Assembly: GCA_964471255.1 (NCBI GenBank)
Contig: CAYYFB010000002.1
Location: 106,283-170,282 of the forward strand
Direction of reading: 5' to 3'
DNA length: 64,000 bases
From: Candidatus Woesearchaeota archaeon
GTDB lineage: Archaea > Nanobdellota > Nanobdellia > CAYMVK01 > CAYYFB01
The notes beneath the pieces were generated by a model. The model saw nothing but the letters and a program-made list of their open reading frames with translations. It was not told where the DNA came from and made no database searches. Positions within the stretch are counted from its first letter, which is position 1, and each line of letters opens with the position of its first letter. The translations under genes and the position numbers were made by a program. Shown one piece after another: positions 854-62,620 of this stretch.

Positions 854-2070
854 ACTATTCTTCCAATTACCAATCCGATTGCGAAAATGATGACAGGGAT
901 CAAGTACTTCCAAATTTCTACTTCTTTCTGCCATTTAGGTTCTGGAAGGGACACTTCAATCGATTTCCACTCTTCTCCATCGAAAAAGTAGAGTTTTCCT
1001 TTTCCTCCAGAATCTAGCTCAATAGATTCATAATCTTTTGAATAAATTTCCCCTATAAAGTAAGTCTGATTATTCAATAACAAATGAACTGATTCTGCCT
1101 TTTTATCACCTTTATTGAAGACTATAAATTTTATTTTCTTTCTTTTCCAATCGAAAGAATATCCGTAGGATATGTTTGCTTTTTTTCTAATTTTTAAATA
1201 GAAATACCCAGTGTCTATTTCTTTCCATACACCTCTTTCTTCTTTCTCCAGTTTATACCCCAATTTCAAAGTATCCATATCAGGATCTAGGATTTTATAT
1301 GAGAATTCTGGAGCGGGGCCTAGTTCACAGTTCTTATTTAATTCAACTTCTTCTTCAGGGGTGAGACACAATCTACATCTATCGCATATTGAAAATTGAA
1401 GTTTGCCTTCCTTTTGAATCTCCTCCTGGAGTATAAGTATACTCTCTTTGTTTTCTGGCTTTAATGGAAAGATTAAAGTATAGTTCATTGCTTTAGCTTC
1501 TCCTTCATTCTCAAACAAAGCTAAAATCTTCAGAATTTGAGTATCTTCCCCTTTGCCATATATTTTTATTTTAACAGCATCTCCATCACTACACACAACG
1601 TTTTCTCCGACAAATTCCCCATAAACACAGACTCTATCCCCTAAATAGTCAAAGCTTATTGTTATTTCGTTTATCTTCCCCTTTGTTAGGTAAAGAGGAT
1701 AAATGTTCTTTATTCTTGGGAGTTTAAATGGAATGATCAGAGCGTCCAGAATTTGCTCTTTATTTCCCTCAATTTTTATCTTCATCTTTGCTGGCTTCTC
1801 ACACAAGTTTTTCCCTCTTACTAAAACAGAAATTGTATTATTTGCAGAAACCCATCCCAAATCTATTTTGTCTTCTTCAAGTTTAATACAGGAAGGAGCA
1901 TCTATTTTTATTTCGAGATCTTCCCCATTAAGCTCCCATAATTTCAGCTCATATGTGAAAGACTTATTCACTTCAAGGAATACTTTTGGCTCATAGAAGA
2001 TTACACTTACCATGGAAAATACAACTGGAGCAAGAAGGTGGATGAGAAGAAGTGCTTTTAGGAATTTCAT
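850..2070 (-). CDS. Secreted, C-terminally membrane-anchored beta-rich protein of unknown function, within the ABC operon
   Basis: 406-aa ORF with an N-terminal signal-like segment ([19 protein letters not shown]) and a C-terminal TM helix (YLIPVIIFAIGLVIGRIV). It overlaps both neighbours by 4 nt. Confidence 0.6.
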   Translation of the reverse strand: MKFLKALLLIHLLAPVVFSMVSVIFYEPKVFLEVNKSFTYELKLWELNGEDLEIKIDAPSCIKLEEDKIDLGWVSANNTISVLVRGKNLCEKPAKMKIKIEGNKEQILDALIIPFKLPRIKNIYPLYLTKGKINEITISFDYLGDRVCVYGEFVGENVVCSDGDAVKIKIYGKGEDTQILKILALFENEGEAKAMNYTLIFPLKPENKESILILQEEIQKEGKLQFSICDRCRLCLTPEEEVELNKNCELGPAPEFSYKILDPDMDTLKLGYKLEKEERGVWKEIDTGYFYLKIRKKANISYGYSFDWKRKKIKFIVFNKGDKKAESVHLLLNNQTYFIGEIYSKDYESIELDSGGKGKLYFFDGEEWKSIEVSLPEPKWQKEVEIWKYLIPVIIFAIGLVIGRIV

Positions 2071-2777
2071 ACCACAATCCTACCGTCCTTCATTTTTATA
2101 ATCCTTTCTGCCGAAGTAGCAACAGAGTTATCATGCGTAACAACTACGATTGTTTTACCAGATTTATAAAGCTTTTTGAATATTCTTAATATCTTCTCCC
2201 CAGTTTTTGAGTCCAAATTGCCTGTGGGCTCATCTGCGAGTATTATTTCTGGATCATTAGCAAGAGCTCTTGCTATTGCTACTCTTTGTTGTTCTCCCCC
2301 AGATAGTTGAGTAGGAAATTTATTAAGATGTTTCTCTAAGCCTACACTTTCTAATAATTTAACTGCTTTCTTTCTAGCACTTCTAAGAGGTATTCCCCTA
2401 ATTGTTATTGGAAGGGCAACATTATCAAGAACCGTTAAGTAGGGAATTAGAAGAAACTGTTGAAAAATAAATCCTATTTTCTCCCTTCTAATTCTGTCTT
2501 TATCGTGCTCCAGAAGAAGGCTACAGTCTTTTCCAAAAAGAAATATTTTCCCTCGGTCAGGAGATTCTAATAATCCAATAATTCTTAATAATGTGGATTT
2601 GCCTGCTCCAGAAGGCCCCATTATGGCTACAAATTCATTTCTCTCTATCTGAAGAGTAACACCAGCAAGTGCAATTGTTTTACCATATATTTTCCAGACA
2701 TTTCTTAGATCAACCAAAATTTCTTTTTCCATCATTTTTTCTTTTCCTTTCTTTGTTAATATATTCTTATCACTCAT
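2067..2777 (-). CDS. ABC transporter ATP-binding protein (MacB/LolD-like)
   Basis: Walker [10 protein letters not shown], signature [15 protein letters not shown], Walker [13 protein letters not shown]-loop VVTHD. The true start may be the internal MMEKE. Confidence 0.9.
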
Positions 2778-2933
2778 AAGTAACAGAAATATAAAAGATA
2801 AGAAGAAAAAGAATCATAGATAAAACAAGGACGGATGAAAAAGAAATTATTAAGAAAGAACTTTTCATCTACACAATAGCAGAAAGAAATTTCTAGAAAT
2901 TTTCTGCGTATATCCACTGACAATGCCTCTTGT

Positions 2934-3281
2934 CTAACAAGTTAGATGAATTGCTAAAGCGGCTTTTTTCCCTTCTTCTATTAGGTTATTATACTCCTTT
3001 ACTGCTTCCTTACTATCCTTTACTATAACTTCAATTCCCCTTTCTTTAAAATAAGAGATAACATCCTTGTCTACTTTCATAATCCCATAATATCCAGTCC
3101 CAATTACAAGAATTTCAAATTTCTTTTCTTTTAGCCACTTCAGGTCATCTAAGGATAATCTGTGTCCTTCCTTTCTCCACCATTTTTCCAGTATTTCATC
3201 TCCACAGATAATAATATCGTTCTTAAACATCCTTTCTCCAATTTTTATCCTTCCAAACTCATATTCCTCAACTCTTTGCAT
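2934..3281 (-). CDS. Mth938-like (DUF498) domain protein
   Basis: MQRVEEYEFGRIKIGERMFKNDIIICGD...FEILVIGTGYYGIMKV resembles the Mth938 fold family. I trimmed the start to the internal Met to remove the overlap with the divergent GATase gene. Confidence 0.55.
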   Translation of the reverse strand: MQRVEEYEFGRIKIGERMFKNDIIICGDEILEKWWRKEGHRLSLDDLKWLKEKKFEILVIGTGYYGIMKVDKDVISYFKERGIEVIVKDSKEAVKEYNNLIEEGKKAALAIHLTC

Positions 3282-3291
3282 AATCCCAATT

Positions 3292-3846
3292 ATGGAGGTA
3301 TTAATCATAAACAATTACAAGGGAAAAATAGGACTGAAGCGCACCAGAAAAATAAAAGAGTTGTTTCTTAAATGTGGGTTTAGAGATTTTAAGATTCTAA
3401 ATTTTGAAAAGGTAAGGGAAGAACATATAAAAAGAAGCGAGCTCGTGGTATTGTCTGGATATGAGTCCGGATGCATAGGGGATTACCTAGAACTTTCAAA
3501 GAAAGTAAGAAAGGCAAAAAGAGCAATCGGGATTTGTGGTGGAATGTATATAATTGCCTTAGCATTCCATGTGCTTCCGAAAAGTCTTCCTAAAAGAAGG
3601 AAGGGGTTTAATAAAATTGAATTTAAGAAAAGAACATTCCTGGTTTACCATAATCACATTCTCTATCTGCCTGAGGAGAGGTTAAAAAAGTTTGAAATAC
3701 TTGGCCGCTCCAGATTCCTTAGAATGAAAATCCCAGAAATAATTAGAAAAAATAAATTTATTGGCCTTCAGTTTCATCCAGAGCTTTCTGGAGCGGACGG
3801 ATTAAATATAATTAAAGAAATTTTATTTTATTACTTGAAAACTTAA
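3292..3846 (+). CDS. Class I glutamine amidotransferase-like protein
   Basis: Nucleophile elbow GICGGMYIIA and C-terminal LQFHPE motif typical of GATase1 (GuaA-N/PabA-like). Confidence 0.7.
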   Translation: MEVLIINNYKGKIGLKRTRKIKELFLKCGFRDFKILNFEKVREEHIKRSELVVLSGYESGCIGDYLELSKKVRKAKRAIGICGGMYIIALAFHVLPKSLPKRRKGFNKIEFKKRTFLVYHNHILYLPEERLKKFEILGRSRFLRMKIPEIIRKNKFIGLQFHPELSGADGLNIIKEILFYYLKT

Positions 3847-4142
3847 TAACTCCTGGCAAGTTGTTGGATCTATCCTTCTGTATGAATCTGTGAAGTTTAA
3901 GATCAATGTGATTATTAATCTAGTTACAAGTGTGTTGTTTAGTGGTAGGTATTTATTCTCTAATTATTCCGAATTGCCAAAAATCTATGTCTTCCTTTCT
4001 TTATATCTCTCTCATATTAAATCCTTTCTCAATGATTATGCCATCCACAAATACTTTCCATTTACTTTGCTCTTTCCAAACTTGTATCCCTTAATTCCTA
4101 TAATTCTAGAAGGACTAAATTTTCTTTAGCTTCTATGTTACC

Positions 4143-4370
4143 ATGAAGAGGTCCCTCAAAATTCTTTCTGTAATCTTACTTTGGATAGCTGTTATTTGCC
4201 TCTGGATTCTTTATTTACTTATTACTATATCTCAGCTAGGGTTAAAATACCTCATTAATACCGTGCTTGACTGGAGAGTTTGGGTAAAAATCATTGTTGC
4301 TGTTTTAATAATCGACTTGACAATTGAACTTTGTTCTAGAGTTGCAAAAAGACTCTTAAAAAGGAAATAA
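4143..4370 (+). CDS. Small membrane protein (two predicted TM helices)
   Basis: 75-aa ORF with hydrophobic stretches ILSVILLWIAVICLWILYLLITI and VKIIVAVLIIDLTIELC. No homolog recognised. Confidence 0.35.
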   Translation: MKRSLKILSVILLWIAVICLWILYLLITISQLGLKYLINTVLDWRVWVKIIVAVLIIDLTIELCSRVAKRLLKRK

Positions 4371-4398
4371 ATATATCTCAAAGCACTAACTTATTCAT

Positions 4399-4535
4399 GC
4401 CGCCGTAGCTCAGCGGTAGAGCACCAGGCTCATATCCAGGGATGAGGGATTTGAGCGCTGACCATGATGAAATGCTTGGGGAGAGCACTGAAGGGAGAAA
4501 CCTGGGGGTCCGGGGTTCGAATCCCCGCGGCGGCA
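4399..4535 (+). tRNA. tRNA with CAT anticodon (elongator Met or Ile2) and a roughly 65-nt intron after position 37
   Basis: Acceptor GCCGCCG/CGGCGGC. D arm TAGCTCAGCGGTAGAGCA. Anticodon stem CCAGG(4424-4428)/CCTGG(4501-4505), with loop CTCATA + A. T arm CGGGGTTCGAATCCCCG. Discriminator A. G1-C72 argues against an initiator. Confidence 0.9.
4435..4499 (+). ncRNA. Box C/D sRNA-like module inside the tRNA(CAT) intron
   Basis: Box C-like GGGATGA 4439-4445, 12-nt guide GGGATTTGAGCG 4446-4457, D-prime CTGA 4458-4461, C-prime ATGATGA 4464-4470, guide ending ...TTGGGGAGAGCA, D CTGA 4488-4491. Confidence 0.6.
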
Positions 4536-4561
4536 GTTCTTTACTTCTAGACGGAACTTCT

Positions 4562-4999
4562 CTACTTGCATTCAATTTCTTCTAAAAATTCTTTTGGTCT
4601 CAAGATTTTAAGTCTATGCTCTTTTACTTCAAGTTCTTTATTTTTGTCTCGTAAATCTAGTAAGTCCTTATCCAAAGTTATCAGGTACTCTGCTTTGATC
4701 TCATAGGCTACATCTAGGAATTTATTATCTTTAGGGTCCCTGCAAAGGGAAAAATGTTCCCTTGGAAAAATAAGTACAGATTTTTCTTCTATAGCTTTGT
4801 AAAATTCGAATACTAATGAAAAAGGAAAATAATTAGTTCCTTTTAAAATTAGAGTCTTAAAGTATTCTATCAAGATCTCTTGACTGATGAAATTTATAAT
4901 CTTGTTTTCAAATAATTTCTTTATTACTTTGAAAGAATCTCCCGATTTAGATATTAAAGCTGCCAAGATTACAGAAGTGTTTAAAACCACTTTTATCAT
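4562..4999 (-). CDS. PIN-domain protein (VapC-like toxin, PIN_3-type)
   Basis: MIKVVLNTSVILAALIS...ILIEY...DPKDNKFLDVA...ITLDKDL. The first conserved acidic residue is Asn (LNTSV rather than LDTNV). 4-nt overlap with the upstream RHH gene. Confidence 0.65.
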   Translation of the reverse strand: MIKVVLNTSVILAALISKSGDSFKVIKKLFENKIINFISQEILIEYFKTLILKGTNYFPFSLVFEFYKAIEEKSVLIFPREHFSLCRDPKDNKFLDVAYEIKAEYLITLDKDLLDLRDKNKELEVKEHRLKILRPKEFLEEIECK

Positions 5000-5253
5000 T
5001 TTCTTATAGCTTTTATCATTTCAACAACTTCTTTGTCACTTACCAGCTTATTTTCTTTCTTTAATTTTTCTCTTATTAGATTAATCTCTTCTAGCAACTT
5101 TTTGTAGTACTCTTCTTTTTTCAAATCGCTAATCATCTTTAGTATGGAAAATCTTATTAATTCAGACTTATCTTTGAATATGCCAAGCTTTATAATGTCC
5201 TCTATTTGCTTCTCAAGGCCTTCAGGGATTCTTATTGTTAGAACTTTCTCCAT
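4996..5253 (-). CDS. Ribbon-helix-helix (CopG-like) antitoxin candidate
   Basis: MEKVLTIRIPEGLEKQIEDIIKLGIFKDKSELIRFSILKMI is an RHH-like N-terminus. Translationally coupled to the PIN gene. Start trimmed to the internal Met. Confidence 0.55.
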   Translation of the reverse strand: MEKVLTIRIPEGLEKQIEDIIKLGIFKDKSELIRFSILKMISDLKKEEYYKKLLEEINLIREKLKKENKLVSDKEVVEMIKAIRK

Positions 5254-5334
5254 ATTACACGTGTAATACATCAGTATTTAAGGCTTTTACACTTTCTTAG
5301 AGATTCATCCCAAATTTCGATATAGTAAATAGGA

Positions 5335-5985
5335 TTATCGAAAGCCCACTACGAAATATTCTTCCTTTCTGAAAACACTATCTTTATAGACCTCTGCTTT
5401 GTACCCTTTTTGTTCAGTATATTTCTTTAGAGCCTCTATCCAATCTTCATATTTCTCAAATTTCTTCCCTATCAATTTTTCAGCAATAGCTCTATCCACA
5501 CAACATGGAACAATCACTATTTTTTCAAAGCCCAAATTGGAGCCAATATCTATAGCTCTGAGAGAAAGGGACTTACAACAGTGCAAAGCAACAACTATTT
5601 TCTCATAATTTTGAAATTTCTCGATAATAGGTTTGAGTTCTTCCTCAAGCTCACCATCAAATAAATCTTTTCTTATATAGAAAAACCTTTTTGTTTTCTC
5701 AAAATTCTTAACAAGAGAAACAGGGGCTCTAATATCTACAGCAATTGAGACTCCATTGTTGTAAAGAACATTATAGAGGCTTATTAGTGCTCTAGACCCG
5801 GAACAAAGCTCAAGGACAAGAGCTTTTCTCCCTTTAATTTCATTCCAGAAAACTAGCAAAGTCTCGGTTATTTCCTTAAAAGGATCCAATGATTTTTTAG
5901 CTATTTTAATCAATATATCAGATTGTTTTCTTCTTAGAAACCATTTCCACATTTGATAAATTTTTTCCATAAAGAGGTCAAACAA
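5335..5985 (-). CDS. Hypothetical protein, possible SAM-dependent methyltransferase fold
   Basis: 216-aa ORF with a weak motif-I-like VLELCSGSRAL. The ORF-track start is a TTG and the true start is uncertain. Confidence 0.35.
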   Translation of the reverse strand: MFDLFMEKIYQMWKWFLRRKQSDILIKIAKKSLDPFKEITETLLVFWNEIKGRKALVLELCSGSRALISLYNVLYNNGVSIAVDIRAPVSLVKNFEKTKRFFYIRKDLFDGELEEELKPIIEKFQNYEKIVVALHCCKSLSLRAIDIGSNLGFEKIVIVPCCVDRAIAEKLIGKKFEKYEDWIEALKKYTEQKGYKAEVYKDSVFRKEEYFVVGFR

Positions 5986-6262
5986 ATGAAGGTTATTATT
6001 CTCTTCAAGATAGACATATACTAATACCGTATTTAAGCTTGTTTGAGGATCTATAATAAAGAAGATATTCCTTATTACTTTCGAATAACTTTTTATAATT
6101 CTAGCAATATCTTTGCTAGCTAATAGCTTATTCTTTTTTGATCTTCCTCTTATGGTATTAATTTCCCTTAATAATTCTCTGTAATCCTTTTCTTTTCAGG
6201 TATTGCTTACTGTTTTTAGTTTGAAGAACCAATTACCTTTCTTTAAAATCTTTCTAAGCAAT

Positions 6263-6846
6263 TTAATAACTTTTCAACCCATATCTTTCTAGAAAAATTG
6301 CCAAAATAGGCTTATATGTAAATTTACTAACTCCTAAAACTCTTAATGCCTCATTTATTCTCTTGCCTGCTATCTTTGGATCTTTCCCTTCAAATTCCAA
6401 TTCCCCTAGCCATCCAATTTCAGGAATGTATTCTATTACTGTTTTAAAATTTGGCCTTGGTATTTCATAAAACTCACAGTTCACTTTCCTAATCACAGCC
6501 AGCAATTTAAATCCCAAATCATTAACTATTTCTTTACATCTCTCAAGACTTCCTTTATATAACACAACTTTCCCTTCTGGATATAAAGATCTCTTAAATT
6601 TTACTCCATCAATCTCTTTAACTTCGTTCTTTGTAAGCAAAATTTCCGCTGGCTTTCTAGGAACTTTCATTCCCTAATCCTTAAATTCTTCCTAATAGGG
6701 TCCCATTTTTCATTTTTAGGAACATAGTAGTAGTCTGTAAACTCATAGGGAAACAATAGTTTTGCATTTAGTTTCTTTAGCCTATTTTTGAATTCCTTTA
6801 TATCATCAATAAAATATCTTATTTCACATTCATACGCAGAAACCAT
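6263..6846 (-). pseudogene. CYTH-domain (CyaB/ThTPase-like) gene split into two overlapping ORFs
   Basis: The upstream 59-codon ORF 6667..6846 (my translation MVSAYECEIRYFIDDIKEF...NLRIRE) carries the CYTH ExExK/R signature (ECEIR). The downstream ORF 6263..6670 carries the C-terminal half (IEYIPEIGWLGELEFEG). The two join at an ATGA overlap in different frames. Confidence 0.45.
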
Positions 6847-6892
6847 ATTTCCTTGAACATTTCCTAACTCTTAAGATCCCTTTCATAAGCAA

Positions 6893-6944
6893 TGTTCATT
6901 TTGAATGAACAAAGTTTAAAAATAATGTTCATCGTGAGTGAACA
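6893..6944 (+). promoter_or_regulatory. Two TGTTCA..TGAACA palindromes bracketing a TATA-like box upstream of the HEPN-MNT operon
   Basis: TGTTCATT-ttg-AATGAACA at 6893-6911, TTTAAAAATA at 6915-6924, TGTTCA-tcgtgag-TGAACA at 6926-6944. This lies about 70 nt upstream of the ATG at 7013. Confidence 0.4.
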
Positions 6945-7012
6945 CTACAAAAGACAAATTAATGAAAGGTTTTATCTCACTCTAATTTTCCTTCTAGGCT
7001 CTATTGTAAATT

Positions 7013-7372
7013 ATGGACCTAAGCAAGAAAGCTAAAATGTTTGAAGAGGAGGCCTATGAAGCGTTCGAAAAGGGAAGATATACATTTACAATTCTTTTTG
7101 CAGAACAAAGCATCCAGCTTTATATAAAACATATTTTGTTTAAAAATTTCGGAGATTTTCCAAAAATACATAATTTAAGAGTTCTTTTTAAGGGACTAAA
7201 TAAGATAAGAGATTTAAGCGACTTTATTGAGGAAAATTCAGCAATTATCGATTTGCTTATGACTGCATATATTGAAGCAAGATATACAAGCATGGAATAT
7301 AGCAAGGTAAGTGCAGAGCTAGCCCTTAAATTTCTAGAAAAATTTAAGGAGAAAATAAAGGATTTGCTATGA
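7013..7372 (+). CDS. HEPN domain protein (HEPN-MNT pair 1)
   Basis: 119 aa, all-helical, with AEQSIQLYIKHIL...HNL...YIEARYT typical of small archaeal HEPN proteins. 4-nt overlap with the MNT gene. Confidence 0.75.
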   Translation: MDLSKKAKMFEEEAYEAFEKGRYTFTILFAEQSIQLYIKHILFKNFGDFPKIHNLRVLFKGLNKIRDLSDFIEENSAIIDLLMTAYIEARYTSMEYSKVSAELALKFLEKFKEKIKDLL

Positions 7373-7725
7373 AATATAGCGTTATAGACCTCCAAAGAGA
7401 GCTAATAGAATCCTACCAGAAATATAGGAAGGACTACTTGAAATATGCTAGAAAAATAAAGGAAATTGCTGAAGAATTTTTTAAGGAAAATCTATTAAAG
7501 GTAATAGTATTTGGATCAACAGTAAAAGGAAATTTTAAGCCCTGGAGTGACATAGATGTTGCAATAATTTTAAAAGAGAGAGTAAATGAGATTGAGATTG
7601 CAAAGTTTATAGGAAAAATAAACAAATTATTTGGTATTCATCCATTTGAAATTCATGTAATTCCCCTAAAGTTTTGGGAGGAATGGTATTCGAAATTTAT
7701 TAAGAAGGATTGGGTTGAGGTTTAG
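7369..7725 (+). CDS. Minimal nucleotidyltransferase (MNT, pair 1)
   Basis: VIVFGSTVKGNFKPWSDIDVAIIL matches the GS-x(n)-DxD pol-beta-type NTase motif. Confidence 0.8.
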   Translation: MKYSVIDLQRELIESYQKYRKDYLKYARKIKEIAEEFFKENLLKVIVFGSTVKGNFKPWSDIDVAIILKERVNEIEIAKFIGKINKLFGIHPFEIHVIPLKFWEEWYSKFIKKDWVEV

Positions 7726-7783
7726 ATAGACCACTGGAAGGGCCTAATATTTTAGCCTGAACTAAAAATCGGGTAAATAATCT

Positions 7784-8860
7784 CTATTCCTTGATGTATT
7801 TCAAAATTTCCTTAGGATACACTTTAATCCTTATTCCTTGCTCATACTCTTTTAGAAATTCCTCAATTTTCCTTTTGAATTCCTTATTAATCTCTGAAAG
7901 TCTTTTTTCTCTAACAAAAGGATCAACATATCTGCGCTTGGTCCTAACTACAAAGTCAAATTCTTTTTCATCTATCTCAACTCTAATATTCTTTAGCAAA
8001 GATAATATTTTCTTCAACTCCCTATCCTTTATTAAAATCCTATATATTTCTTCCTCTCCCCGCTCCAGAAAATCTTTGGTTTCTATTAGGCCCTGCTCCA
8101 GAGCCTTCTTTAGGATTTTGCTAATAACCAGGAATATCCCTGAATCTTTATTGTAGTATCTAGATAGCTCCAAATAGCTTAGTGAATAAATTAAGGCTGT
8201 CTTTTCAGAACTAAAATACAAATTGCTTCCTTTTTTTATGTCCCTTGCTATCCAAAACAGATCTTCCCCAAATATGGATCTAATATGCCTTAGGGAATAG
8301 TCTAATCTATCTGCGCAAATGTTTGGAATTGGAGAATCTAAATATCTGTATCTTCCATTCCTAAATTTTTTTACCATTCTTTTTAGATTTAAACCATGGT
8401 TCTCACAAATTTCATTTATTTTTGAATTTTCCAAGAAACTTTCCATTACTCTTTCATGCCATTCCTGTTTTTCATAATCCCCAAACAAAAAATCGATTAT
8501 ATGACCAAAAGCAGGCCTGGAAATATCATGCAATAGCCCCATTATTCTTTCTTCATAATTAGCTCCTAGGCTTGTTAATAATGCATAGACTCCAATCGAG
8601 TGCTCAAAGATTGTAACAGGCTTTTTATAGAATGGATTATTGGGGCTTAGGAATACTTTATATCCGCTAAGAGTTATCTTTTTTAGCCTTTTGAATTCTG
8701 GAGCGCGAATTATTTCTGAAGAAAGCTTATTCATTTTAATTTTTCCATATTCTGTTTTTATTTCCATAGATAGGAAAGGATAAATTCCTAATAAGGTGTT
8801 AACAGTGCTTAGATTTTTAAGAAGGTATTTATAGAATTTTCCGCTTTTAATCCAACCCAA
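7784..8860 (-). CDS. HD-domain metal-dependent phosphohydrolase
   Basis: FEHSIGVYALL ... GLLHDISRPAFGH is an HD motif. The track start at 8860 is TTG; the real start is probably an internal Met (for example MEIKTEYG). Confidence 0.7.
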   Translation of the reverse strand: MGWIKSGKFYKYLLKNLSTVNTLLGIYPFLSMEIKTEYGKIKMNKLSSEIIRAPEFKRLKKITLSGYKVFLSPNNPFYKKPVTIFEHSIGVYALLTSLGANYEERIMGLLHDISRPAFGHIIDFLFGDYEKQEWHERVMESFLENSKINEICENHGLNLKRMVKKFRNGRYRYLDSPIPNICADRLDYSLRHIRSIFGEDLFWIARDIKKGSNLYFSSEKTALIYSLSYLELSRYYNKDSGIFLVISKILKKALEQGLIETKDFLERGEEEIYRILIKDRELKKILSLLKNIRVEIDEKEFDFVVRTKRRYVDPFVREKRLSEINKEFKRKIEEFLKEYEQGIRIKVYPKEILKYIKE

Positions 8861-9276: not shown

Positions 9277-9291
9277 TTCTTAAGCTATAGT

Positions 9292-10077: not shown

Positions 10078-10082
10078 TTATC

Positions 10083-14459: not shown

Positions 14460-14490
14460 GTAATATATTTTGCTTAGCTGTTTATAAACT

Positions 14491-50219: not shown

Positions 50220-50291
50220 AAGAGTAATCTCTCTAGACCTTATCTTTCCTTATATTTAAAGGATAATTATTTAAAGGGTAGGGAGAAGTAT

Positions 50292-50540: not shown

Positions 50541-50544
50541 AAAA

Positions 50545-51030: not shown

Positions 51031-51036
51031 ACTATA

Positions 51037-52230: not shown

Positions 52231-52252
52231 ATTTAAGACTCAGGCTTAGATA

Positions 52253-53224: not shown

Positions 53225-53232
53225 AAAGAGAT

Positions 53233-54357: not shown

Positions 54358-54388
54358 TCTGAAGTGTGATGAAGATCTTAAGTGCTGA
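54343..54388 (+). ncRNA. Box C/D sRNA candidate
   Basis: C ATGATGA 54343-54349, 9-nt spacer AAGATTGAT, D-prime CTGA 54359-54362, 3-nt linker, C-prime GTGATGA 54366-54372, 12-nt guide AGATCTTAAGTG, D CTGA 54385-54388. Confidence 0.6.
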
Positions 54389-54643
54389 CTATCTCCCAAA
54401 TTCTCTTAAAACTTTTCTCCCTTTTGTTATTTTTAGAATTTTCTCTCGAATAGTTTCAGAGGATTCATCCTCCTTTACGTTTATTTTGTAAGGAAGAGGT
54501 TCTAAATGTTTTCTATTACATCTTCTCCTTTTTACAAAACCATCTATTAACACAAATTTATCATCTATTTCCTTGACTACAACACAAACCCTACCAGCTT
54601 CCCTACCTGCTATTTTAATACATAGCCTTCCTGGTTCTATCAT
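54389..54643 (-). CDS. rpl14e: Ribosomal protein L14e
   Basis: IEPGRLCIKIAGREAGRVCVVVKEIDDKFVLIDG...KRRRCNRKHLEP (KOW-type). Confidence 0.85.
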   Translation of the reverse strand: MIEPGRLCIKIAGREAGRVCVVVKEIDDKFVLIDGFVKRRRCNRKHLEPLPYKINVKEDESSETIREKILKITKGRKVLREFGR

Positions 54644-54652
54644 ATCTATCCC

Positions 54653-55510: not shown

Positions 55511-56054
55511 AGAAGAACCAATATCTCACAATCTCTTCAGCTATTTTTACCATTTTTTTCTTTCCTACTCTAGAAGTATTGAAATAAAAATCGATCTGGA
55601 GCGAGGGAATATCAAAAATATCTATGTGATAAAGGTAAATATACCTTTCCCTGGTTATGTTGTTTTTTCTTTGAACAAAATCATACGCGTCTTTTAAAGG
55701 AATTCTTTCCCTTTTTGCAATTCTTTCTGCCGCCTGCTCCAGATTACAATGAACATAGATAATCAAATCAATCTTTTCAAGCAAAAAAGGTAAAATCCAA
55801 GAGTCTATTACCAATCTCTCTTTTTCTTTGCAGATTTTTATAAGTTCTTTATCAATTTCCCTCTCTATCCTGGGGTTCTCTTTAAGGAAATCTAGCCACT
55901 CAAAAAATTTCTCCTTATCATTAAATCCATATTCAAAGCTTTTCTTCTTAATAAAATCTCCACATCTAAGGAGCTCGAGATTGAATACTTTTGCCAAATG
56001 GGACGCTATGGTTGACTTGCCCGCTCCAGAAGTTCCAACAACGCCTATCTTCAT
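55503..56054 (-). CDS. cmk: Archaeal-type cytidylate kinase / small P-loop NMP kinase
   Basis: MKIGVVGTSGAGKSTIASHLA. The position next to rpl14e and cbf5 matches the conserved archaeal cmk-rpl14e-cbf5 neighbourhood. Confidence 0.6.
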   Translation of the reverse strand: MKIGVVGTSGAGKSTIASHLAKVFNLELLRCGDFIKKKSFEYGFNDKEKFFEWLDFLKENPRIEREIDKELIKICKEKERLVIDSWILPFLLEKIDLIIYVHCNLEQAAERIAKRERIPLKDAYDFVQRKNNITRERYIYLYHIDIFDIPSLQIDFYFNTSRVGKKKMVKIAEEIVRYWFFYE

Positions 56055-56175
56055 AGCTAGATATACTGTTACTCCTAAAAAGTTTACTTAACTAAAAGCA
56101 TTTCTGGAGCGCGATGGAAATCTTTATCATAGACAAAACTAAAGAGTGATTACCAATTTAAAGCCCTTTATATAT

Positions 56176-56204
56176 CCCCCCACCCCTTAGTTTCCAGTGG
56201 AAAA
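56176..56204 (-). promoter_or_regulatory. ORB element 1 (dyad plus G-string, read on the minus strand)
   Basis: The minus strand reads TTTTCCACTGGAAACTAAGGGGTGGGGGG. This matches the archaeal ORB core TCCA(G/C)TGGAAA followed by a G-tract. Confidence 0.7.
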
Positions 56205-56332
56205 GAATGGAATGTGTTGAGAAGCAAGGAACAGAAAATGTATATAAAATAAGGAAATAGTAATATATAGAACTATTTACTACTAATTATAAATGAATAT
56301 TTAAAGACCTGCAATACTATACGCGAGTAGTG

Positions 56333-56354
56333 TTTCCATAGGAAATGAAGGGGT
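56333..56354 (+). promoter_or_regulatory. ORB element 2 (variant dyad plus G-string, read on the plus strand)
   Basis: TTTCCATAGGAAATGAAGGGGT, inverted relative to ORB 1 across the AT-rich segment. Confidence 0.6.
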
Positions 56355-56440
56355 GCCTCATATTTTTAAAGGGTTTTTATATGATGTTACTATTTGTTAA
56401 TTACTTTTTTAAATAAAAAAGCAAGAGCTCAGAGATAATC

Positions 56441-56471
56441 TCCCTAATTTGATTTCGTTTTCCACTGGAAA
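56441..56471 (-). promoter_or_regulatory. ORB element 3
   Basis: The minus strand reads TTTCCAGTGGAAAACGAAATCAAATTAGGGAG. Confidence 0.6.
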
Positions 56472-56717
56472 TTTTATTACTTTCAAGAGACAAAATTGCA
56501 AGTGGAAATTTTAATATTTATAAGTAGTAAAATCCGCTCCAGAATCTGGATAAGTAATTTATAAAGGCAACAAGCAAGGATGAATTGAGATATTCTAAGA
56601 CCGCCCAAGGCCTTTAAATGCCGGAAAACCTGGAGCGGCAAGAAAATTCCTATTTCAAATTATGAAATAAAAGGTTTTTTATAAGAAAGAATTAAATCCA
56701 TTATAGCTATTAATATT

Positions 56718-57911
56718 GTGAAACTTACAGACTTCTTTAAGCAAGCAAAAGAAGGAAAAAGGATATTTAGAAACAAAGATGTTCTAACTGATAGATATTT
56801 TCCTGATAAAATAATGCATAGGGATGAACAAATAAAGGCAATTGCTGAAATACTCTCTCCAGCGCTAAGACTGGAGCGGCCAAGCAATCTTTTTATTTAT
56901 GGGAAGCCTGGAACTGGGAAGACTCTTGTTATAAAGTATGTTACAAAAGAAATGGAAAAAGTGGCAAAAGAAGATAACGTACCTCTTGATATTATCTACG
57001 TAAACTGTAAAATGAAGAAAGTTGCAGATACTGAGTACAGATTACTCGCTCATTTAATAAGATGCTTTGGTAAAAGGGCTCCATTGCTTGGTATCCCTAC
57101 CTACGAACTTTATAGGAATCTTTTTTCTATACTTGATGAGAAAGAGAGGCTTGCAATACTAATTTTTGATGAGATTGATGAGCTTGTAAAAAAGACTGGT
57201 GATAATATTCTTTATAACTTTACAAGGATCAATGAAAACCTGGAGCGGGCCAAGGTATCTATAGTTGGAATTTCAAATGACATTGTATTTGTGGAAAACC
57301 TAGATCCTAGAGTAAAGAGCTCTTTAGGAGAGGAGGAAGTAATATTTCCCCCTTATGATGCTAATCAATTAAGAGACATTCTTTGGCAAAGAGCAAAGCT
57401 AGCATTTGAGCCAGAGGCTATTTCGGATGCTGTAATATCAAAATGCGCCGCATATGCTGCAAGGGAGCATGGAGATGCCAGGAAAGCATTAGACCTACTT
57501 AGGGTTGCTGGGGAGATTGCAGAGAGAGAAGGAAGAAGCAAGGTTCTGGAGCAGGATGTCGATAAAGCATTGGAGAAACTGGAGCGGGATAGGATAATAG
57601 AAATTGTGAAAGTCCAGCCAATTCAGTCTAAGCTAATTTTATTGGCAATAATAAATGCGATAGAAAAGAAGGGAGAACCTATAGAAGTAGGGGATGTTTA
57701 CGATGAATATGAGAGAATAACTGAAAAATTCAAGATTAGACCCATCTCTCAAAGAAGGGCATCGGATCTTATTTCTGAATGGGACATGTTTGGAGTAATA
57801 AATGCAAGAACTGTAAGCTTTGGTAAATATGGAAGAAAGAAAGAAATAAAATTGGCAATTCCAAATTCCATAAAAACAAAAATTATTGAAGTAATAGAGA
57901 ACTCAATTTAA
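56718..57911 (+). CDS. cdc6: Orc1/Cdc6 replication initiator
   Basis: GTG start. RIFRNKDVLTDRYFPDKIMHRDEQI, Walker A YGKPGTGKT, Walker B LIFDEIDEL, sensor and GDARKALDLLRVAGEIAE, and a C-terminal winged helix (ISQRRASDLISEWDMFGVINAR). Confidence 0.93.
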   Translation: MKLTDFFKQAKEGKRIFRNKDVLTDRYFPDKIMHRDEQIKAIAEILSPALRLERPSNLFIYGKPGTGKTLVIKYVTKEMEKVAKEDNVPLDIIYVNCKMKKVADTEYRLLAHLIRCFGKRAPLLGIPTYELYRNLFSILDEKERLAILIFDEIDELVKKTGDNILYNFTRINENLERAKVSIVGISNDIVFVENLDPRVKSSLGEEEVIFPPYDANQLRDILWQRAKLAFEPEAISDAVISKCAAYAAREHGDARKALDLLRVAGEIAEREGRSKVLEQDVDKALEKLERDRIIEIVKVQPIQSKLILLAIINAIEKKGEPIEVGDVYDEYERITEKFKIRPISQRRASDLISEWDMFGVINARTVSFGKYGRKKEIKLAIPNSIKTKIIEVIENSI

Positions 57912-57916
57912 TTCTT

Positions 57917-57955
57917 CCGCTCCAGAAAATGAATTACTAAAAAGTTCTGGAGTGG
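57917..57955. terminator. Hairpin made of two inverted motif copies between the convergent cdc6 and MNT genes
   Basis: CCGCTCCAGAA (57917-57927) and TTCTGGAGTGG (57945-57955) give an 11-bp stem with one G-T pair and a 17-nt loop. It starts 6 nt after the cdc6 stop. Confidence 0.4.
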
Positions 57956-57961
57956 CGGTCT

Positions 57962-58285
57962 TTATAATTTTTTAGCGTATTTGAGAATTTCTTTATAAAA
58001 GCTCAATTTCTTTGCTTTCTCAAATTCTTCCTCTGTCAATACTATTGGTTCTATCGGTAATTTTGTAAGAGAAAGGACGTATGCGATTCTTTCAATAGCC
58101 CTCATCTTTAGATCCCAGATTATGAGAAGATCTATATCAGAACCTTCATGAAAATCTCCTCTTGCAAAAGATCCAAATAAGTATACTTCTTTTGCTCCCA
58201 TTTTCTTCAATTTCTTCGCGAATTTTTTTATTTCATCAAATATTTCCTTACTTCTTTCAATATCGATTCTGACAATTTTATGCAT
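57962..58285 (-). CDS. Minimal nucleotidyltransferase (MNT, pair 3)
   Basis: VYLFGSFARGDFHEGSDIDLLIIW. Confidence 0.8.
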   Translation of the reverse strand: MHKIVRIDIERSKEIFDEIKKFAKKLKKMGAKEVYLFGSFARGDFHEGSDIDLLIIWDLKMRAIERIAYVLSLTKLPIEPIVLTEEEFEKAKKLSFYKEILKYAKKL

Positions 58286-58623
58286 AATTCAGCATCCTCT
58301 TTTGTAAAATATTTTGATGGGGGGAGATTTGAAATTATTCCATTAGGATATCTCGATGCTATGTACATTGCGTCTAAGAGATAAACTTCCCTTTCAAAAG
58401 ATTTAAGAGAGGGGATAAACCTTTCACATTCCTCTATTAAATCTCTTATAGAATGAGTTAATATTGCCCTTTTTCCATGCTTTATCAATACAGCCTTAAG
58501 GGCTTTCTCAGAGGCTTGTTGAGCCTGAAAGCATGCCCAATTATATCTTTTCATTCTTAAGCTATCTTTTGCGGCTTCCAGATCATATTCCGCATCTTCA
58601 AACCATCTTCTCCACTCTTCCAC
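58228..58623 (-). CDS. HEPN domain protein (pair 3)
   Basis: WFEDAEYDLEAAK...ACFQAQQASEKALKAVL...HSIRDL...YIASRYPNG. Confidence 0.78.
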   Translation of the reverse strand: MEEWRRWFEDAEYDLEAAKDSLRMKRYNWACFQAQQASEKALKAVLIKHGKRAILTHSIRDLIEECERFIPSLKSFEREVYLLDAMYIASRYPNGIISNLPPSKYFTKEDAELCIKLSESILKEVRKYLMK

Positions 58624-59107
58624 AAGTCTTAAGTATTGGAAACCTTTTAAATTTTCTTTTCTGATTATTCTTCCCTTACTAGCTCTTACATAGAAGAAAA
58701 AGCCATATCATTTCTGAAGTAGCTAGTAGACCCTCTGGAGTGGCTTTTTGTATTTAAGACATTGTCTACTCTACTCTTAGAATTCTTTGGAAAGGTTCAT
58801 ATTTCGAATTATTTTTGTGGAAGGCCGCTCCAGAATTCGGATAAAGGCCGAGTAGGTGAAAATTTTTAACTTTAAGAACCATGGTTTAATTTTGAGCATG
58901 TTCAATAGGACCTCCGTTAAGTGATAAAAGTGAGTATAGCAATGTTAATAAAAACACTGGCAGAACCAGAAAGAAGATATTACTTACTCCAAGAAACGCT
59001 TGAAGCAATATTAGAAAATAAAAAAAATAATTAATATTCCTGAGTTATACAGAGAGTACCAAGAAAAATGTATTAGAAAAGGAATTATCCCTCTAGATTA
59101 TAATGGT

Positions 59108-59587
59108 TTGTATTATATACTTAAAAAAATAGAGCCCTGTGAAGATACCTTCTATGTAAAGGAAATTTTTAGGAAAGCAAATTATCCAAGAATCCCACCA
59201 AACCTTGGAGGGATTTTAATAATAGCGACGGTTCTGGCGCGCTATGGAAGAATTTCAAAAGAAAATATTAGTAGTGTAGGAGTACTTACAATCTTAGAAT
59301 ACATAGGTCTGTTGATTGAAATGAATATAATCTCTCCTGAATTGGGAAAAAAGCTGTGCAAAAACATAAACTGCCGTTCCATTCGCCGTAGGAGAAAAAA
59401 ACTATGCAAAGGTTATAAAGCAATACCAACCTTGCTTAGAAGGCATGGTATTTGGTTAATTGGTAGTCCTATACGTTTACAGGACAGTTATGGGACTATA
59501 GAAAAAATTGAAATAGATGAGAGAGAAGGAATAATTTGGGCTTTTTATTCACAAGATAGCTTGAGAGGCTGTAAAAGAATTTACTAA
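59108..59587 (+). CDS. Hypothetical protein (start uncertain)
   Basis: 159-aa ORF with a TTG start in the track. The frame stays open upstream to about 59015. Confidence 0.35.
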   Translation: MYYILKKIEPCEDTFYVKEIFRKANYPRIPPNLGGILIIATVLARYGRISKENISSVGVLTILEYIGLLIEMNIISPELGKKLCKNINCRSIRRRRKKLCKGYKAIPTLLRRHGIWLIGSPIRLQDSYGTIEKIEIDEREGIIWAFYSQDSLRGCKRIY

Positions 59588-59764
59588 AACAGAAGCCCAG
59601 TTTTCTGGTATTGGTTTTTTTAAATGATGCTCCTACAGATACTATTACTTTACTTGCTTTACTGGGCCAACCTGGTTTTTCTTTCATTACCTACAAATCC
59701 AGGTTGTGCCAGAGTCCAAGCGAGTCTAGAGTAATTGTTTAAAAAGGTGAAGGAATTTTTTGGT

Positions 59765-62620
59765 ATGAATAAATCAATGGGGGAATTTCTGGATAAGGTT
59801 AGGAATATAGAGGCAAAGTGGAGCGAGATATGGATTAAGGAAAAAGAATTTGAGGCTGATGCCAAGCCTGGAGCACCAAAATATTTTATAACAGTCCCCT
59901 ATCCCTATGTTTCTGGGCCACCACACATTGGACATGGAAGATCTTATGTTGTGGGGGATGTAATAGCAAGATATAAGAGACTTAAGGGGTACCATGTCCT
60001 ATATCCCATTGCTTTTCATGTAAGTGGGCTACCTATTGCTTCTATAGCTGATGGAATCTCGAGAGGAGATAAAGGGATGTTTGATAGGATGATGTTCTAT
60101 GTACTTCCGTTTGAGAAGGATGAAGAAAAAGCCAAAGAGATTATAGAAAGCTTTAAGGATCCAATGAATGTTGCTCTATATTTCATAAAAATATGGGAAA
60201 AAGATCTTAAGAATTTTGGATTTTCTCTTGACTGGAGGAGAAAATTTCATACTGCAGAGCCAATTTATAATAAATTTGTTGAATGGCAGTATTATAAGCT
60301 TAAAGAGAAAGGAGTTTTGAAGAAAGGAGAATATTATGTCCTTTATTGTCTAATGCACAAACACCCAGCTGGAGAGGATGATATTCAGGACGGGGATGTT
60401 AACCCGGTAAAAAAAGTTGAATGGGTTGGAGTTAAGTTTAAATTCGAGGATGGATGGATAATAGCCGGAACTTTAAGGCCTGAGACAATCTTTGGGATAA
60501 CAAATGTATGGGCGAAGCCAGAAGCAAAGTACTGTAAAATTAAAGTTAATGAGGAAGTTTGGTATGTTTCCAGGGAGGCTGCGGAGAAGTTTTCATATCA
60601 ATTTGATAATGTTTCTATTCTAGAAGAAATAGATGGTTCTTACTTTATAGGGAAATGGTGTGTAGACCCACTAGGTAATAAACAAATAATACTTCCAGCA
60701 AGATTTATAGATCCAGACATAGGAACGGGCTTTGTTTATTCCGAACCATCCGATGCTCCAATAGATTGGGTAGCATTAATGGAATTGAAGGCCGCTCCAG
60801 AAAAAGTTAGGGAATTTGGAATAGATCCAAGAATATTAGAAAAAATAGAGCCAAAGAAGATTATTGATTTGCCTGGAGTGGAGGGACACCATAGCGAAGT
60901 TCTAATAAAGAAGTATAATGTAAAAGATCAATTGGACCCAAGATTAGAACAAATTTCTGAAGAGGCGTATAAGGAGCAATATTATAATGGAATAATGATT
61001 CCAGAAGGAGTAAAAGGGATGAAAGTATCTGAAGCTAAAGAATATGTAAAAGAGAAGCTATTGAGGGAAAATAAAGCAATAATTTTCTACGAAACATCAA
61101 GAAAAGCCGTCTGTAGAGCTAAGGGAAAAATAATTGTGGCTAAAGTAAAGGATCAATGGTTTATAGATTATTCTCCTGAATGGATTAAGGAACTAGGGAG
61201 GAAATGGTTAGATAAGAATATTGTTTATCCAGAGAAGTATAGGAAGCTATTTTATGATACAATTGATTGGTTAGAGAAAAGACCCTGCACCAGAACTAGG
61301 GGCCTTGGGACAAGGTTTCCATTTGACAAAAAATGGGTAATTGAATCCCTATCTGATTCTACCATCTATATGGCCTTTTATACCATTGCTCACTTAATCC
61401 GCTCCAGAAATATTGACCCATCTCAATTAATACCTGAAGTGTTTGACTATGTATTCCTGGGTAAGGGGGATGTTAAGGAAGTATCTAAAAGTTCAGGAAT
61501 ACCTGAAGAAACTCTAGAAGAGATGAGAAAGGAATTCCTATATTGGTATCCATTAGATCATAGGCATACTGGAGTGGCCCACATAACTAATCATCTTTCT
61601 TTCTTCATCTTACATCACTGCATCATATTCCCAGAAGAGTTGTGGCCAAAGCGGATTACTTTGCATGAAATGGTCTTAAGTGAAGGGGAAAAAATGTCAA
61701 AATCAAAAGGAAATGTGGTGCTACTTAAAGATATTGTAGAAAGGTATTCAATAGACCTTTATAGGCTATATGCAATAGGAACAGCAGATTTAGGGGCACC
61801 AATGGATTGGAGAGAAAGGGATGTTGCAGCATTAACAGGAAGACTACATAGATTTTTCCAAGTATGTGAAAAAGCAATTGCCGCTCCAGAAAGGGAGAAA
61901 GATAGGTTAGATGAGTGGCTCCTATCATCCTTTTATAAAAGATTGAAAGAAGCCTCCGCTCTAATAGAGTCTTTTAGGTTTAGGGAATATGTTCAAAGTC
62001 TATTTTATGGTGTATTAAGTGATATAAATAGATATTTATTGAGAAAAGGAACCGAAGATTATTATGGAGTAAAATTAATCCTTAAAGATTGGCTAATTTC
62101 CCTCTCTCCAGTCATTCCCCATATTTGTGAGGAATTTCTGGAGCGGATGGGAGAGAAAAGAATAAAAGATCAGAAATGGCCTGAGATTAGGGAAATAAAA
62201 GAAGAAATATTAAGAGAAGAAGAGTTCATTGAACAAGTGAAAGAGCAAGTAATAAAAATATGTTCTAGGCTTAAAAAACCGATTGAAGAGAAAGGAATAA
62301 AGGTTGTTAGGATAGTTATTCCAAAAGAAGAAAAGTACAAACTGTGGGAGGAAATAGAAAAAGTTTCTGAAAAAGACATTGGAAGAATTTTGGCTGAAAA
62401 AGGATTTTATGATCTAATAAGGCAAGCATTGAGGCAAAAAAGGGAAAAATTAATATGGTTTAACAGATCTAAGGAAAAAGAATTATTGGAGGATTCCATG
62501 AAATACTTTTCTTTCATATTTGGAGCACCATTTGAGCTAGTAATGGAGGAAGAAATACCTGAAGAAATTGCTAAAATTAGCGCTCCAGGTCAGCCAGCAA
62601 TTTTGGTTGAGTTTAAGTAA
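59765..62620 (+). CDS. leuS: Leucyl-tRNA synthetase, archaeal type
   Basis: PYPYVSGPPHIGHGRSY (HIGH), KMSKSKGN (KMSKS), a CP1 editing insertion, about 950 aa. Start moved to the first ATG (MNKSMGEFLDKVRNIEAKW); the track ORF begins at TTG 59735. Confidence 0.92.
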   Translation: MNKSMGEFLDKVRNIEAKWSEIWIKEKEFEADAKPGAPKYFITVPYPYVSGPPHIGHGRSYVVGDVIARYKRLKGYHVLYPIAFHVSGLPIASIADGISRGDKGMFDRMMFYVLPFEKDEEKAKEIIESFKDPMNVALYFIKIWEKDLKNFGFSLDWRRKFHTAEPIYNKFVEWQYYKLKEKGVLKKGEYYVLYCLMHKHPAGEDDIQDGDVNPVKKVEWVGVKFKFEDGWIIAGTLRPETIFGITNVWAKPEAKYCKIKVNEEVWYVSREAAEKFSYQFDNVSILEEIDGSYFIGKWCVDPLGNKQIILPARFIDPDIGTGFVYSEPSDAPIDWVALMELKAAPEKVREFGIDPRILEKIEPKKIIDLPGVEGHHSEVLIKKYNVKDQLDPRLEQISEEAYKEQYYNGIMIPEGVKGMKVSEAKEYVKEKLLRENKAIIFYETSRKAVCRAKGKIIVAKVKDQWFIDYSPEWIKELGRKWLDKNIVYPEKYRKLFYDTIDWLEKRPCTRTRGLGTRFPFDKKWVIESLSDSTIYMAFYTIAHLIRSRNIDPSQLIPEVFDYVFLGKGDVKEVSKSSGIPEETLEEMRKEFLYWYPLDHRHTGVAHITNHLSFFILHHCIIFPEELWPKRITLHEMVLSEGEKMSKSKGNVVLLKDIVERYSIDLYRLYAIGTADLGAPMDWRERDVAALTGRLHRFFQVCEKAIAAPEREKDRLDEWLLSSFYKRLKEASALIESFRFREYVQSLFYGVLSDINRYLLRKGTEDYYGVKLILKDWLISLSPVIPHICEEFLERMGEKRIKDQKWPEIREIKEEILREEEFIEQVKEQVIKICSRLKKPIEEKGIKVVRIVIPKEEKYKLWEEIEKVSEKDIGRILAEKGFYDLIRQALRQKREKLIWFNRSKEKELLEDSMKYFSFIFGAPFELVMEEEIPEEIAKISAPGQPAILVEFK

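Follow-up and report, generated by a model that had tools for sequence, protein, structure and literature searches.

A hyper-abundant CTGGAG-cored DNA word, kept against codon usage and protein sequence, along 64 kb of an uncultured archaeal chromosome

The stretch of DNA analysed in this work (hereafter the window) comprised 64 kb of contig CAYYFB010000002.1 of a Candidatus Woesearchaeota archaeon and contained 63 open reading frames (ORFs), among them leuS and cdc6/orc1 (56718-57911), together with a textbook archaeal origin of replication (oriC, 56176-56510) just upstream of cdc6/orc1. Dispersed through these genes, and occasionally between them, was one nine-base word, CTGGAGCGG, of which 33 exact copies were found by direct search with its complement included (all copy counts cover both strands and refer to the window only). 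An initial annotation of the same DNA had listed 33 copies by hand; every coordinate and strand it gave proved exact, and the hand count was not inflated. The copies, and the two inverted pairs that include one each, were as follows:

1308..1316, plus strand: antisense in ORF 850-2070 (PAPE)
3705..3713, minus strand: antisense in the GATase ORF (GRSR)
3788..3796, plus strand: sense in the GATase ORF (SGAD)
8060..8068, minus strand: sense in an HD-domain ORF (LER)
9708..9716, plus strand: antisense in ORF 9292-10077 (PAPD)
10613..10621, minus strand: sense in the 1144-aa ORF (TGAE)
11054..11071: CTGGAGTGG/CCGCTCCAG, two abutting sites in inverted orientation that form an 18-bp near-palindrome within the 1144-aa ORF and contain the exact copy 11063-11071 (minus strand)
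11457..11465, minus strand: sense in the 1144-aa ORF (LER)
11498..11506, minus strand: sense in the 1144-aa ORF (TGAG)
13831..13839, plus strand: sense, P-loop of the MeaB-like GTPase (PGAG)
17500..17508, plus strand: antisense in the RtcA ORF (AAPV)
17692..17700, minus strand: sense in the RtcA ORF (AGAG)
17887..17895, minus strand: sense in the RtcA ORF (AGAE)
18375..18383, minus strand: sense in the RNase Z-like ORF (AGAD); last copy before a 22.8-kb gap
41201..41209, plus strand: sense in the CorA ORF (LER); first copy past the 22.8-kb gap
41621..41629, minus strand: antisense in the CorA ORF (PLQ)
43810..43818, minus strand: sense in HEPN ORF 43462-43842 (LER)
44321..44329, plus strand: antisense in the AspRS ORF (PAPV)
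44510..44518, plus strand: antisense in the AspRS ORF (TAPV); adjoins an inverted CTCCAG at 44503
45714..45722, minus strand: sense in the GatE ORF (PGAA)
55279..55287, minus strand: sense in ORF 54653-55510 (TGAA)
56021..56029, minus strand: sense, P-loop of a kinase-like ORF (SGAG)
56534..56542, minus strand: intergenic, oriC repeats on one side and cdc6 on the other
56630..56638, plus strand: intergenic, upstream of cdc6
56871..56879, plus strand: sense in cdc6/orc1 (LER)
57240..57248, plus strand: sense in cdc6/orc1 (LER)
57579..57587, plus strand: sense in cdc6/orc1 (LER)
57917..57955: CCGCTCCAGAA...TTCTGGAGTGG, an inverted pair in the space that separates the convergent cdc6 and MNT genes, containing the exact copy 57917-57925 (minus strand)
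58825..58833, minus strand: intergenic
60792..60800, minus strand: antisense in leuS (AAPE; orthologues [KR]-N-P-E)
61399..61407, minus strand: antisense in leuS (IRSR; orthologues I-R-[KE]-[YH])
61881..61889, minus strand: antisense in leuS (AAPE; orthologue columns variable and differing)
62138..62146, plus strand: sense in leuS (LER; orthologues W/N-S/E-W/K)

Thirteen copies were on the plus strand and 20 on the minus strand, and the overall density was 0.5 exact copies per kb. The initial annotation had judged the DNA to be about one third G+C and the 9-mer to be expected less than once; the measured values were 34.7% G+C and 0.065 copies, and 100 dinucleotide-preserving shuffles gave a mean of 0.07 copies and a maximum of 1. 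The annotation had also named a codon-aware null model as a check, and the enrichment persisted under it. When synonymous codons were shuffled inside each of the 63 ORFs (300 shuffles), a procedure which preserves the proteins and the codon counts of each gene, including the rare codons contributed by CTGGAGCGG itself, 0.75 +/- 0.87 copies (maximum 4) were obtained in coding sequence vs. 29 observed. Unrelated control hexamers such as CTGAAG, CTTGAG and GGAGGA showed 0.8-1.3 times their expectation under synonymous shuffling. CTGGAGCGG and its sub-words ranked first in the enrichment lists for all word lengths from 6 to 12, with 150 copies of CTGGAG, 72 of CTGGAGC, 47 of CTGGAGCG, 33 of CTGGAGCGG and 14 of TTCTGGAGCGG. 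CpG was strongly depleted across the window (observed/expected 0.39), yet 47 of the 740 CpGs fell within CTGGAGCG; CC/GG dinucleotides were at 1.4 times expectation.

One-base variants were more numerous than the 35 or so estimated initially: 62 were counted, of which the four variants named in the annotation made up 40. Fifty-six carried the change at positions 7-9 and 6 at positions 1-6: C at position 7 was replaced by T (13 copies), A (11) or G (4), G at position 8 by A (13) or T (1), and G at position 9 by C (10) or A (4). The commonest variants, CTGGAGTGG and CTGGAGCAG (13 copies each), were those that arise by a transition at either base of the CG step. The CT prefix dominated with every tail (13 of 15 GGAGTGG, 33 of 36 GGAGCGG), and the information in the flanks was close to zero outside T at -1 and -2 (a weak TT) and “not T” at +10 (G, C or A). 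Once the tails CGV, DGG and CAG were subtracted, the remaining CTGGAG count was about that predicted by codon usage. The consensus can be written tt-CTGGAG-CGG-v, in which the near-invariant CTGGAG supplies six hard positions and the tail three soft ones. The earlier view that the copies were not parts of a longer repeat was borne out by the near-uninformative flanks and by a repeat search which returned no family; a longer repeat or mobile element, such as a repetitive extragenic palindrome or a miniature inverted-repeat transposable element, was rejected on the same grounds and on the location of 29 of the 33 copies inside genes.

Four copies of CTGGAGCGG were intergenic. The 29 genic copies (19 sense, 10 antisense) occupied five of the six frame/orientation classes: 8 in sense frame 0 (Leu-Glu-Arg), 11 in sense frame 1 (x-Gly-Ala-x), and 7, 2 and 1 in the three antisense frames. 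The frames and peptides listed in the initial annotation were right (LER in cdc6 and leuS, xGAx in the MeaB-like P-loop, AAPE and IRSR in leuS). The codons forced by the word were rare in the window, as had been anticipated: CGG accounted for 3% of Arg, GCG for 11% of Ala and CTG for 7% of Leu codons. LER peptides nevertheless carried the word in 8 of 19 cases (as CTG GAG CGG) vs. 0.013 expected from codon usage, [STPA]-G-A-[VADEG] peptides in 11 of 15 (0.31 expected), [STPA]-A-P-[VADEG] peptides in 7 of 10 (0.22 expected) and x-R-S-[SR] peptides in 2 of 4 (0.001 expected). Altogether, 29 of 53 amino-acid-compatible sites carried CTGGAGCGG, and the compatible peptides themselves were about 2- to 6-fold more frequent than predicted from amino-acid frequencies.

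Proteins were altered as well as codons. In an alignment of the LeuS of the window with 59 orthologues, the motif sites were in poorly conserved columns, and the residues had changed in this lineage alone: [KR]-N-P-E to A-A-P-E, I-R-[KE]-[YH] to I-R-S-R, W-S-W to L-E-R, and A-L-P-L to S-A-P-G at a site which holds the CGC variant of the word. The word was therefore imposed on proteins at tolerant positions, the pattern described by Findlay and Redfield for the DNA uptake sequence (DUS) and the uptake signal sequence (USS) of bacteria (PMC2817400). Selection or drive acts on the word as DNA, whatever its strand or frame, and at a cost to codon usage and protein sequence. The core claim of the initial annotation, a short strand-symmetric word kept at the DNA level against codon usage, therefore holds, and the finding is real and stronger than was reported; two points had been missed, the hard CTGGAG core with its soft three-base tail, and an evenly spread layer of CTGGAG[A/T/G]GG sites.

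The copies were not spread evenly. The longest gap free of CTGGAGCG, which was also without exact copies, measured 22.8 kb, and none of 5000 random placements produced a gap of that length (P < 2e-4); the index of dispersion was 3.3. Sites were divided according to position 7 into C7 forms (CTGGAGC[G/A]N, 69 sites) and D7GG forms (CTGGAG[A/T/G]GG), and the window into rich (R) and poor (P) domains:

1..4000, rich domain R1: 6 C7-type sites
4001..7760, poor domain P1: 0 C7-type sites; CTGGAG itself not enriched; intron-containing tRNA, PIN, HEPN-MNT toxin-antitoxin
7761..19270, rich domain R2: 26 C7-type sites; 19 CTGGAGCG in coding sequence
19271..40100, poor domain P2: 0 CTGGAGCG; 0 of 10 compatible sites occupied; 8 CTGGAG[A/T/G]GG; ABCE1, L7Ae, Tmk, Trk and other native genes
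40101..47000, rich domain R3: 13 C7-type sites
47001..54500, poor domain P3: 0 C7-type sites; 5 CTGGAG[A/T/G]GG; tRNA-Gln, PyrG, Hsp20, Cbf5
54501..64000, rich domain R4: 20 C7-type sites; oriC, cdc6, leuS

The rich domains (31.9 kb) contained 65 C7 forms, 15 CTGGAG[A/T/G]GG and 27 other CTGGAG, vs. 4 C7 forms (none with CG), 13 CTGGAG[A/T/G]GG and 26 other CTGGAG in the poor domains (32.1 kb). All 42 copies of CTGGAGCG in coding sequence belonged to rich domains, the poor ones having none, and LER was spelled CTA GAG AGA in P2. Within rich domains a family site occurred about every 350 bp (2-3 per kb), with Poisson-like gaps (coefficient of variation 1.0) and mixed orientations. The density of D7GG forms was similar in both compartments (0.47 per kb in rich, 0.40 per kb in poor domains), about tenfold or more above the synonymous-shuffle expectation, and the most over-represented words of the poor domains were CTGGAGAG among 8-mers (11 vs. 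1.5 expected) and CTGGAG among hexamers (38 vs. 15.9, z = 6.6). The sites fall into two layers, CTGGAGNGG being spread uniformly and CTGGAGCG restricted to domains, an observation which is new.

The mosaic was reproduced in part by independent data and was not accompanied by changes of composition. Contigs from Logan, an independent single-run assembly (SRR7051321), matched 1-9120, 15888-20691, 36961-50770 and 56250-63419 with 0-1 mismatches, and crossed four of the six domain junctions without mismatch. CpG observed/expected outside the word was 0.31-0.47, the same in rich and poor domains, and ABCE1, from a poor domain, was as isolated as LeuS, from a rich one (best match 48-50% vs. 54-57% identity). 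Foreign or chimeric poor domains were rejected on these three results together with codon usage and tetranucleotide composition (values below). Loss of the CG form from the poor domains by CpG decay was not supported: CpG outside the word was not lower there and the D7GG density was equal.

P1 is the only poor domain of accessory appearance, with a PIN gene and a HEPN-MNT pair beside a tRNA gene. HEPN-MNT pairs were encoded at 7013-7725, 43127-43842 and 57962-58623 (26-35% identical to one another), and a PIN-domain gene at 4562-4999. The word was missing from the PIN gene and from two of the three pairs, and the HEPN gene 43462-43842 had one exact copy; genes of recent acquisition lack USS too (PMC2817400). 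Rfam, but not ARAGORN, detected two tRNA genes whose long insertions are presumably introns (4399-4535 and 63395-63523, both on the plus strand), the former at the start of P1; an intron-less tRNA-Gln (47920-47994) was inside P3.

The origin consisted of origin recognition boxes (ORBs), the two main repeats being separated by an AT-rich stretch:

56176-56205: ORB repeat of TTTCCAGTGGAAA type, with G-strings
56333-56355: ORB repeat of the same type, inverted
56458-56473: mini-ORB
56498-56510: mini-ORB

Identity of the word with an ORB was rejected, as boxes of TTCCAGTGGAAA type are present at 56176-56510 and differ in sequence from CTGGAGCGG. Left of oriC, 8 exact copies were on the plus strand and 14 on the minus strand, and right of it 5 and 6; with relaxed copies the numbers were 31 and 38 (left) and 12 and 8 (right). 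The slight minus-strand excess on the left follows gene orientation (19 sense vs. 10 antisense copies).

The host lineage was that of an isolated archaeon, with intron-containing tRNAs, Cdc6 and ORBs. The nearest LeuS proteins were from metagenome-assembled genomes of Njordarchaeales type and of “Nitrososphaerota” (best 54-57% identity), none being closer among 5.8 billion proteins, and the genome was seen in one sample only (run SRR7051321), where it is represented by a 184-kb contig (NCBI/ENA) and a JGI copy. Eighty archaeal LeuS loci (36-57% LeuS identity) contained a single chance copy of CTGGAGCGG in total, and no comparable over-represented word (best score 16 vs. 33-34 for the outer thirds of the window). 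Among IMG/VR viral contigs, patterns of two copies gave GC-rich chance matches and genes with tandem Gly-Ala-type repeats, with no dispersed use of the word.

A sequence-specific process, blind to strand and frame and working on duplex DNA instead of protein or RNA, pushed the word near saturation in parts of the chromosome, and the word is the putative target by which a sequence-specific factor recognises double-stranded DNA. An occupancy of about two thirds of the amino-acid-compatible sites in the rich domains (by comparison with P2), with altered proteins, implies such a putative factor in Archaea. Hyper-abundant genomic words are rare, and each has exposed a specific DNA-handling machine or, as the highly iterated palindrome HIP1 of cyanobacteria, stayed an open puzzle. 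The three classes of over-represented words distinguished by Elhai (Chi, uptake sequences and HIP1) are bacterial without exception (PMC4390886). Literature searches found no description of an archaeal equivalent of the present word, nor of sequence-selective uptake or Chi-like or HIP-like sites in Archaea. The word could tentatively be regarded as the first genome-wide recognition word of an archaeon, either a self-DNA tag for uptake or recombination or a sequence code marking chromosomal domains. If this were true, the two layers would be indicators of chromosome compartments or of past recombination in an uncultured lineage that branches deeply. From sequence alone, the domain-restricted layer reads out chromosome segments among which some process differs, in an organism which cannot be cultured. 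The initial annotation had offered three analogies, which are not equivalent to one another; that with Chi falls away, given the lack of an orientation flip across oriC, while those with DUS/USS and with HIP1 may still apply.

Among the mechanisms considered, molecular drive of the uptake-sequence type was ranked first, with a probability of roughly 0.35. Conspecific fragments with the word would be preferentially captured or recombined. Such a preference would let alleles which create or improve the word replace alleles without it, and copies would build up wherever the protein tolerates them; the domain mosaic would then reflect differing histories of recombination or import, or differing accessibility, of chromosome segments. 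Biased uptake or recombination may be the driver. DUS (Neisseriaceae, 12-mer AT-GCCGTCTGAA) and USS (Pasteurellaceae, core AAGTGCGGT) are also short, non-palindromic words of 9-12 bp, present at roughly 0.5-1 copy per kb or more, with hundreds to thousands of copies per genome at about 1 per kb. Their strands are equally used, their genic copies are found in several frames, and they have strong and weak positions with many one-base variants; the tripeptides they encode are raised, at poorly conserved residues, and they are absent from some accessory genes. They also form occasional inverted pairs with hairpins between genes, pairs which often act as terminators. In the window, abundance was far above chance, both orientations were used without replication polarity, and peptides were raised at poorly conserved residues. 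One pair formed a hairpin between genes (57917-57955; single-stranded, a predicted 11-bp stem, dG -8.4, z -2.8) and another abutted inside a gene (11054-11071), a number of pairs too small to generalise from. Of the readings considered, uptake-like drive accounts for the largest share of the local features, namely density, symmetry, the split into strong and weak positions, the effects on the proteome, the lack of the word in some accessory genes and the one terminator-like pair.

Several results weigh against uptake-like drive. The plain form of the model predicts roughly uniform or even spacing, and the patchy distribution fits it poorly: unlike DUS and USS, which are spread roughly evenly over the core genome, the C7 form was confined to domains, the contrast between C7 and D7GG forms in rich vs. 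poor domains was strong (Fisher P = 9e-6), and 0 of 10 compatible sites were occupied in the 21-kb domain P2 vs. 29 of 43 in 1-19.3 and 40.1-64 kb (P = 1e-4). The poor domains were native by codon usage (permutation P = 0.30) and tetranucleotide correlation (0.98-0.99), and held housekeeping genes (ABCE1, L7Ae, thymidylate kinase, Trk, CTP synthase, Cbf5). One border (19256-19266) cut through an operon whose genes overlap (permease, 19256-20332; RNase Z-like, 18319-19266; RtcA, 17318-18322). The uniform CTGGAG[A/T/G]GG layer of position-7 variants is a second difference from DUS and USS and requires an explanation of its own, and only 4 of the 33 exact copies were intergenic. The host is an archaeon, and for Archaea literature searches turned up no account of sequence-specific DNA uptake. 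Gene scans of the window (Pfam on 60 of its 63 ORFs, NCBIfam and PADLOC on some ten each) detected no pilus, DNA-import, DprA or ComEC-like gene, and the databases held no sister genome for comparison of a shared word or dialect.

The distribution is better accommodated by a chromosome-organising site similar to HIP1, a reading which is possible but doubtful. According to it, a putative abundant DNA-binding or nucleoid protein would recognise CTGGAG with its tail, and selection would cluster high-affinity C7 sites in domains of 4-12 kb and keep weaker D7 sites everywhere, the word marking or shaping the domains. The C7 layer was indeed confined to sharp-bordered domains that ignored gene function and operon structure, the borders were real (Logan contigs over four of six junctions), and protein binding-site matrices typically combine a hard core and a graded tail. 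HIP1 (GCGATCGC) is also hyper-abundant in coding and non-coding DNA and far above codon-aware expectation; it is found in all frames, 15- to 300-fold over-represented, conserved, and uneven or periodic at 10-90 kb, a distribution its authors read as a link to nucleoid structure (PMC5861425). The unevenness of HIP1 at the scale of tens of kb resembles the mosaic at 4-21 kb seen here in a short window, and a link with methyltransferase target sites is a further possible likeness. HIP1, however, is an 8-bp palindrome with GATC, whereas the word is asymmetric and not self-complementary; HIP1 is phylum-wide, whereas the word was absent from the loci of 80 relatives bar the one chance copy; and methyltransferase evidence was not found in the window scans. 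Furthermore, 64 kb is too short for periodicity, no candidate binding protein was identified, 2-3 sites per kb forcing amino-acid changes is high for known architectural sites, and the function of HIP1 is itself unproven.

Methylation coupled to biased repair is an improbable explanation. A Type IIG, bacteriophage exclusion (BREX)-like or orphan methyltransferase would act on CTGGAG, perhaps with a cytosine methylase at the CG of the tail, and sequence-directed mismatch repair would turn near-matches into full sites, as very-short-patch repair acts on CCWGG in E. coli. Type IIG enzymes typically have non-palindromic cores of 6 bp, and the position of the CG transition products CTGGAGTGG and CTGGAGCAG as the commonest variants is consistent with a deamination-prone CG. 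A BREX methyltransferase group of the archaeon Haloterrigena has the invariant hexamer itself as its documented N6-methyladenine (6mA) target (PMC10609329), and HIP abundance was linked to methyltransferases by Elhai (PMC4390886); the Haloterrigena target is a lead, not evidence for this organism. Repair should deplete its substrates, but TGG and CAG variants were abundant; a specificity over 9-12 bp exceeds known methylase sites; and CpG outside the word did not differ between rich and poor domains. Gene scans of the same scope as above detected no DNA methyltransferase, restriction or BREX gene in the window, the sole methyltransferase-like match being a weak Methyltransf_32 (5335-5985). Restriction targets are usually avoided rather than enriched, and for those of Type IIG and BREX systems neither an enrichment of tens to hundreds of fold nor a length of 9-12 bp is known. 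The restriction to domains would also be left unexplained.

A polar signal for recombination or translocation, read relative to replication by a helicase-nuclease or translocase, is very unlikely. The word is short, non-palindromic and over-represented, as are Chi, the FtsK-orienting polar sequences (KOPS) and architecture-imparting sequences (asymmetric words of 5-8 bp or more, read on DNA), and its tail contains AGCGG, the Bacillus subtilis Chi sequence, which we take to be probably a coincidence. Those signals are strongly polarised relative to replication, whereas the orientation of the word did not switch across oriC (56.2-56.5 kb), and the mild minus excess left of it follows gene orientation; polarity of the Chi/KOPS type was rejected on this basis. 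There is next to no chance that the word is a by-product of amino acids and codons, a dispersed repeat or recent duplication, or a chimera of two strains made in assembly: synonymous shuffles already yield 38 CTGGAG in coding sequence and a few copies encode conserved motifs (e.g. P-loop GAGK, ABC signature SGGE), but the 29 copies against a null of 0.75, the uninformative flanks without a repeat family, the four stretches reproduced by Logan and the homogeneous composition across domains all speak against it, and a codon or amino-acid artefact was rejected by the synonymous shuffles together with the site-occupancy counts. The remaining probability falls to mechanisms outside the readings listed.

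The most motif-laden gene of the window was the 1144-aa ORF (10083-13517, minus strand), with 14 CTGGAG and 4 exact 9-mers; it had a Cys-rich N-terminal region and apparent membrane segments, and no Pfam, NCBIfam or PADLOC match. Two further ORFs resembled defence proteins: an AAA_14/DUF4143 ATPase at the edge of P2 (38845-40035, minus strand) matched the PADLOC candidate defence family PDC-S01 (E = 3e-35), and a small STAND-like NTPase (15939-16544, minus strand) showed weak matches to defence ATPases.

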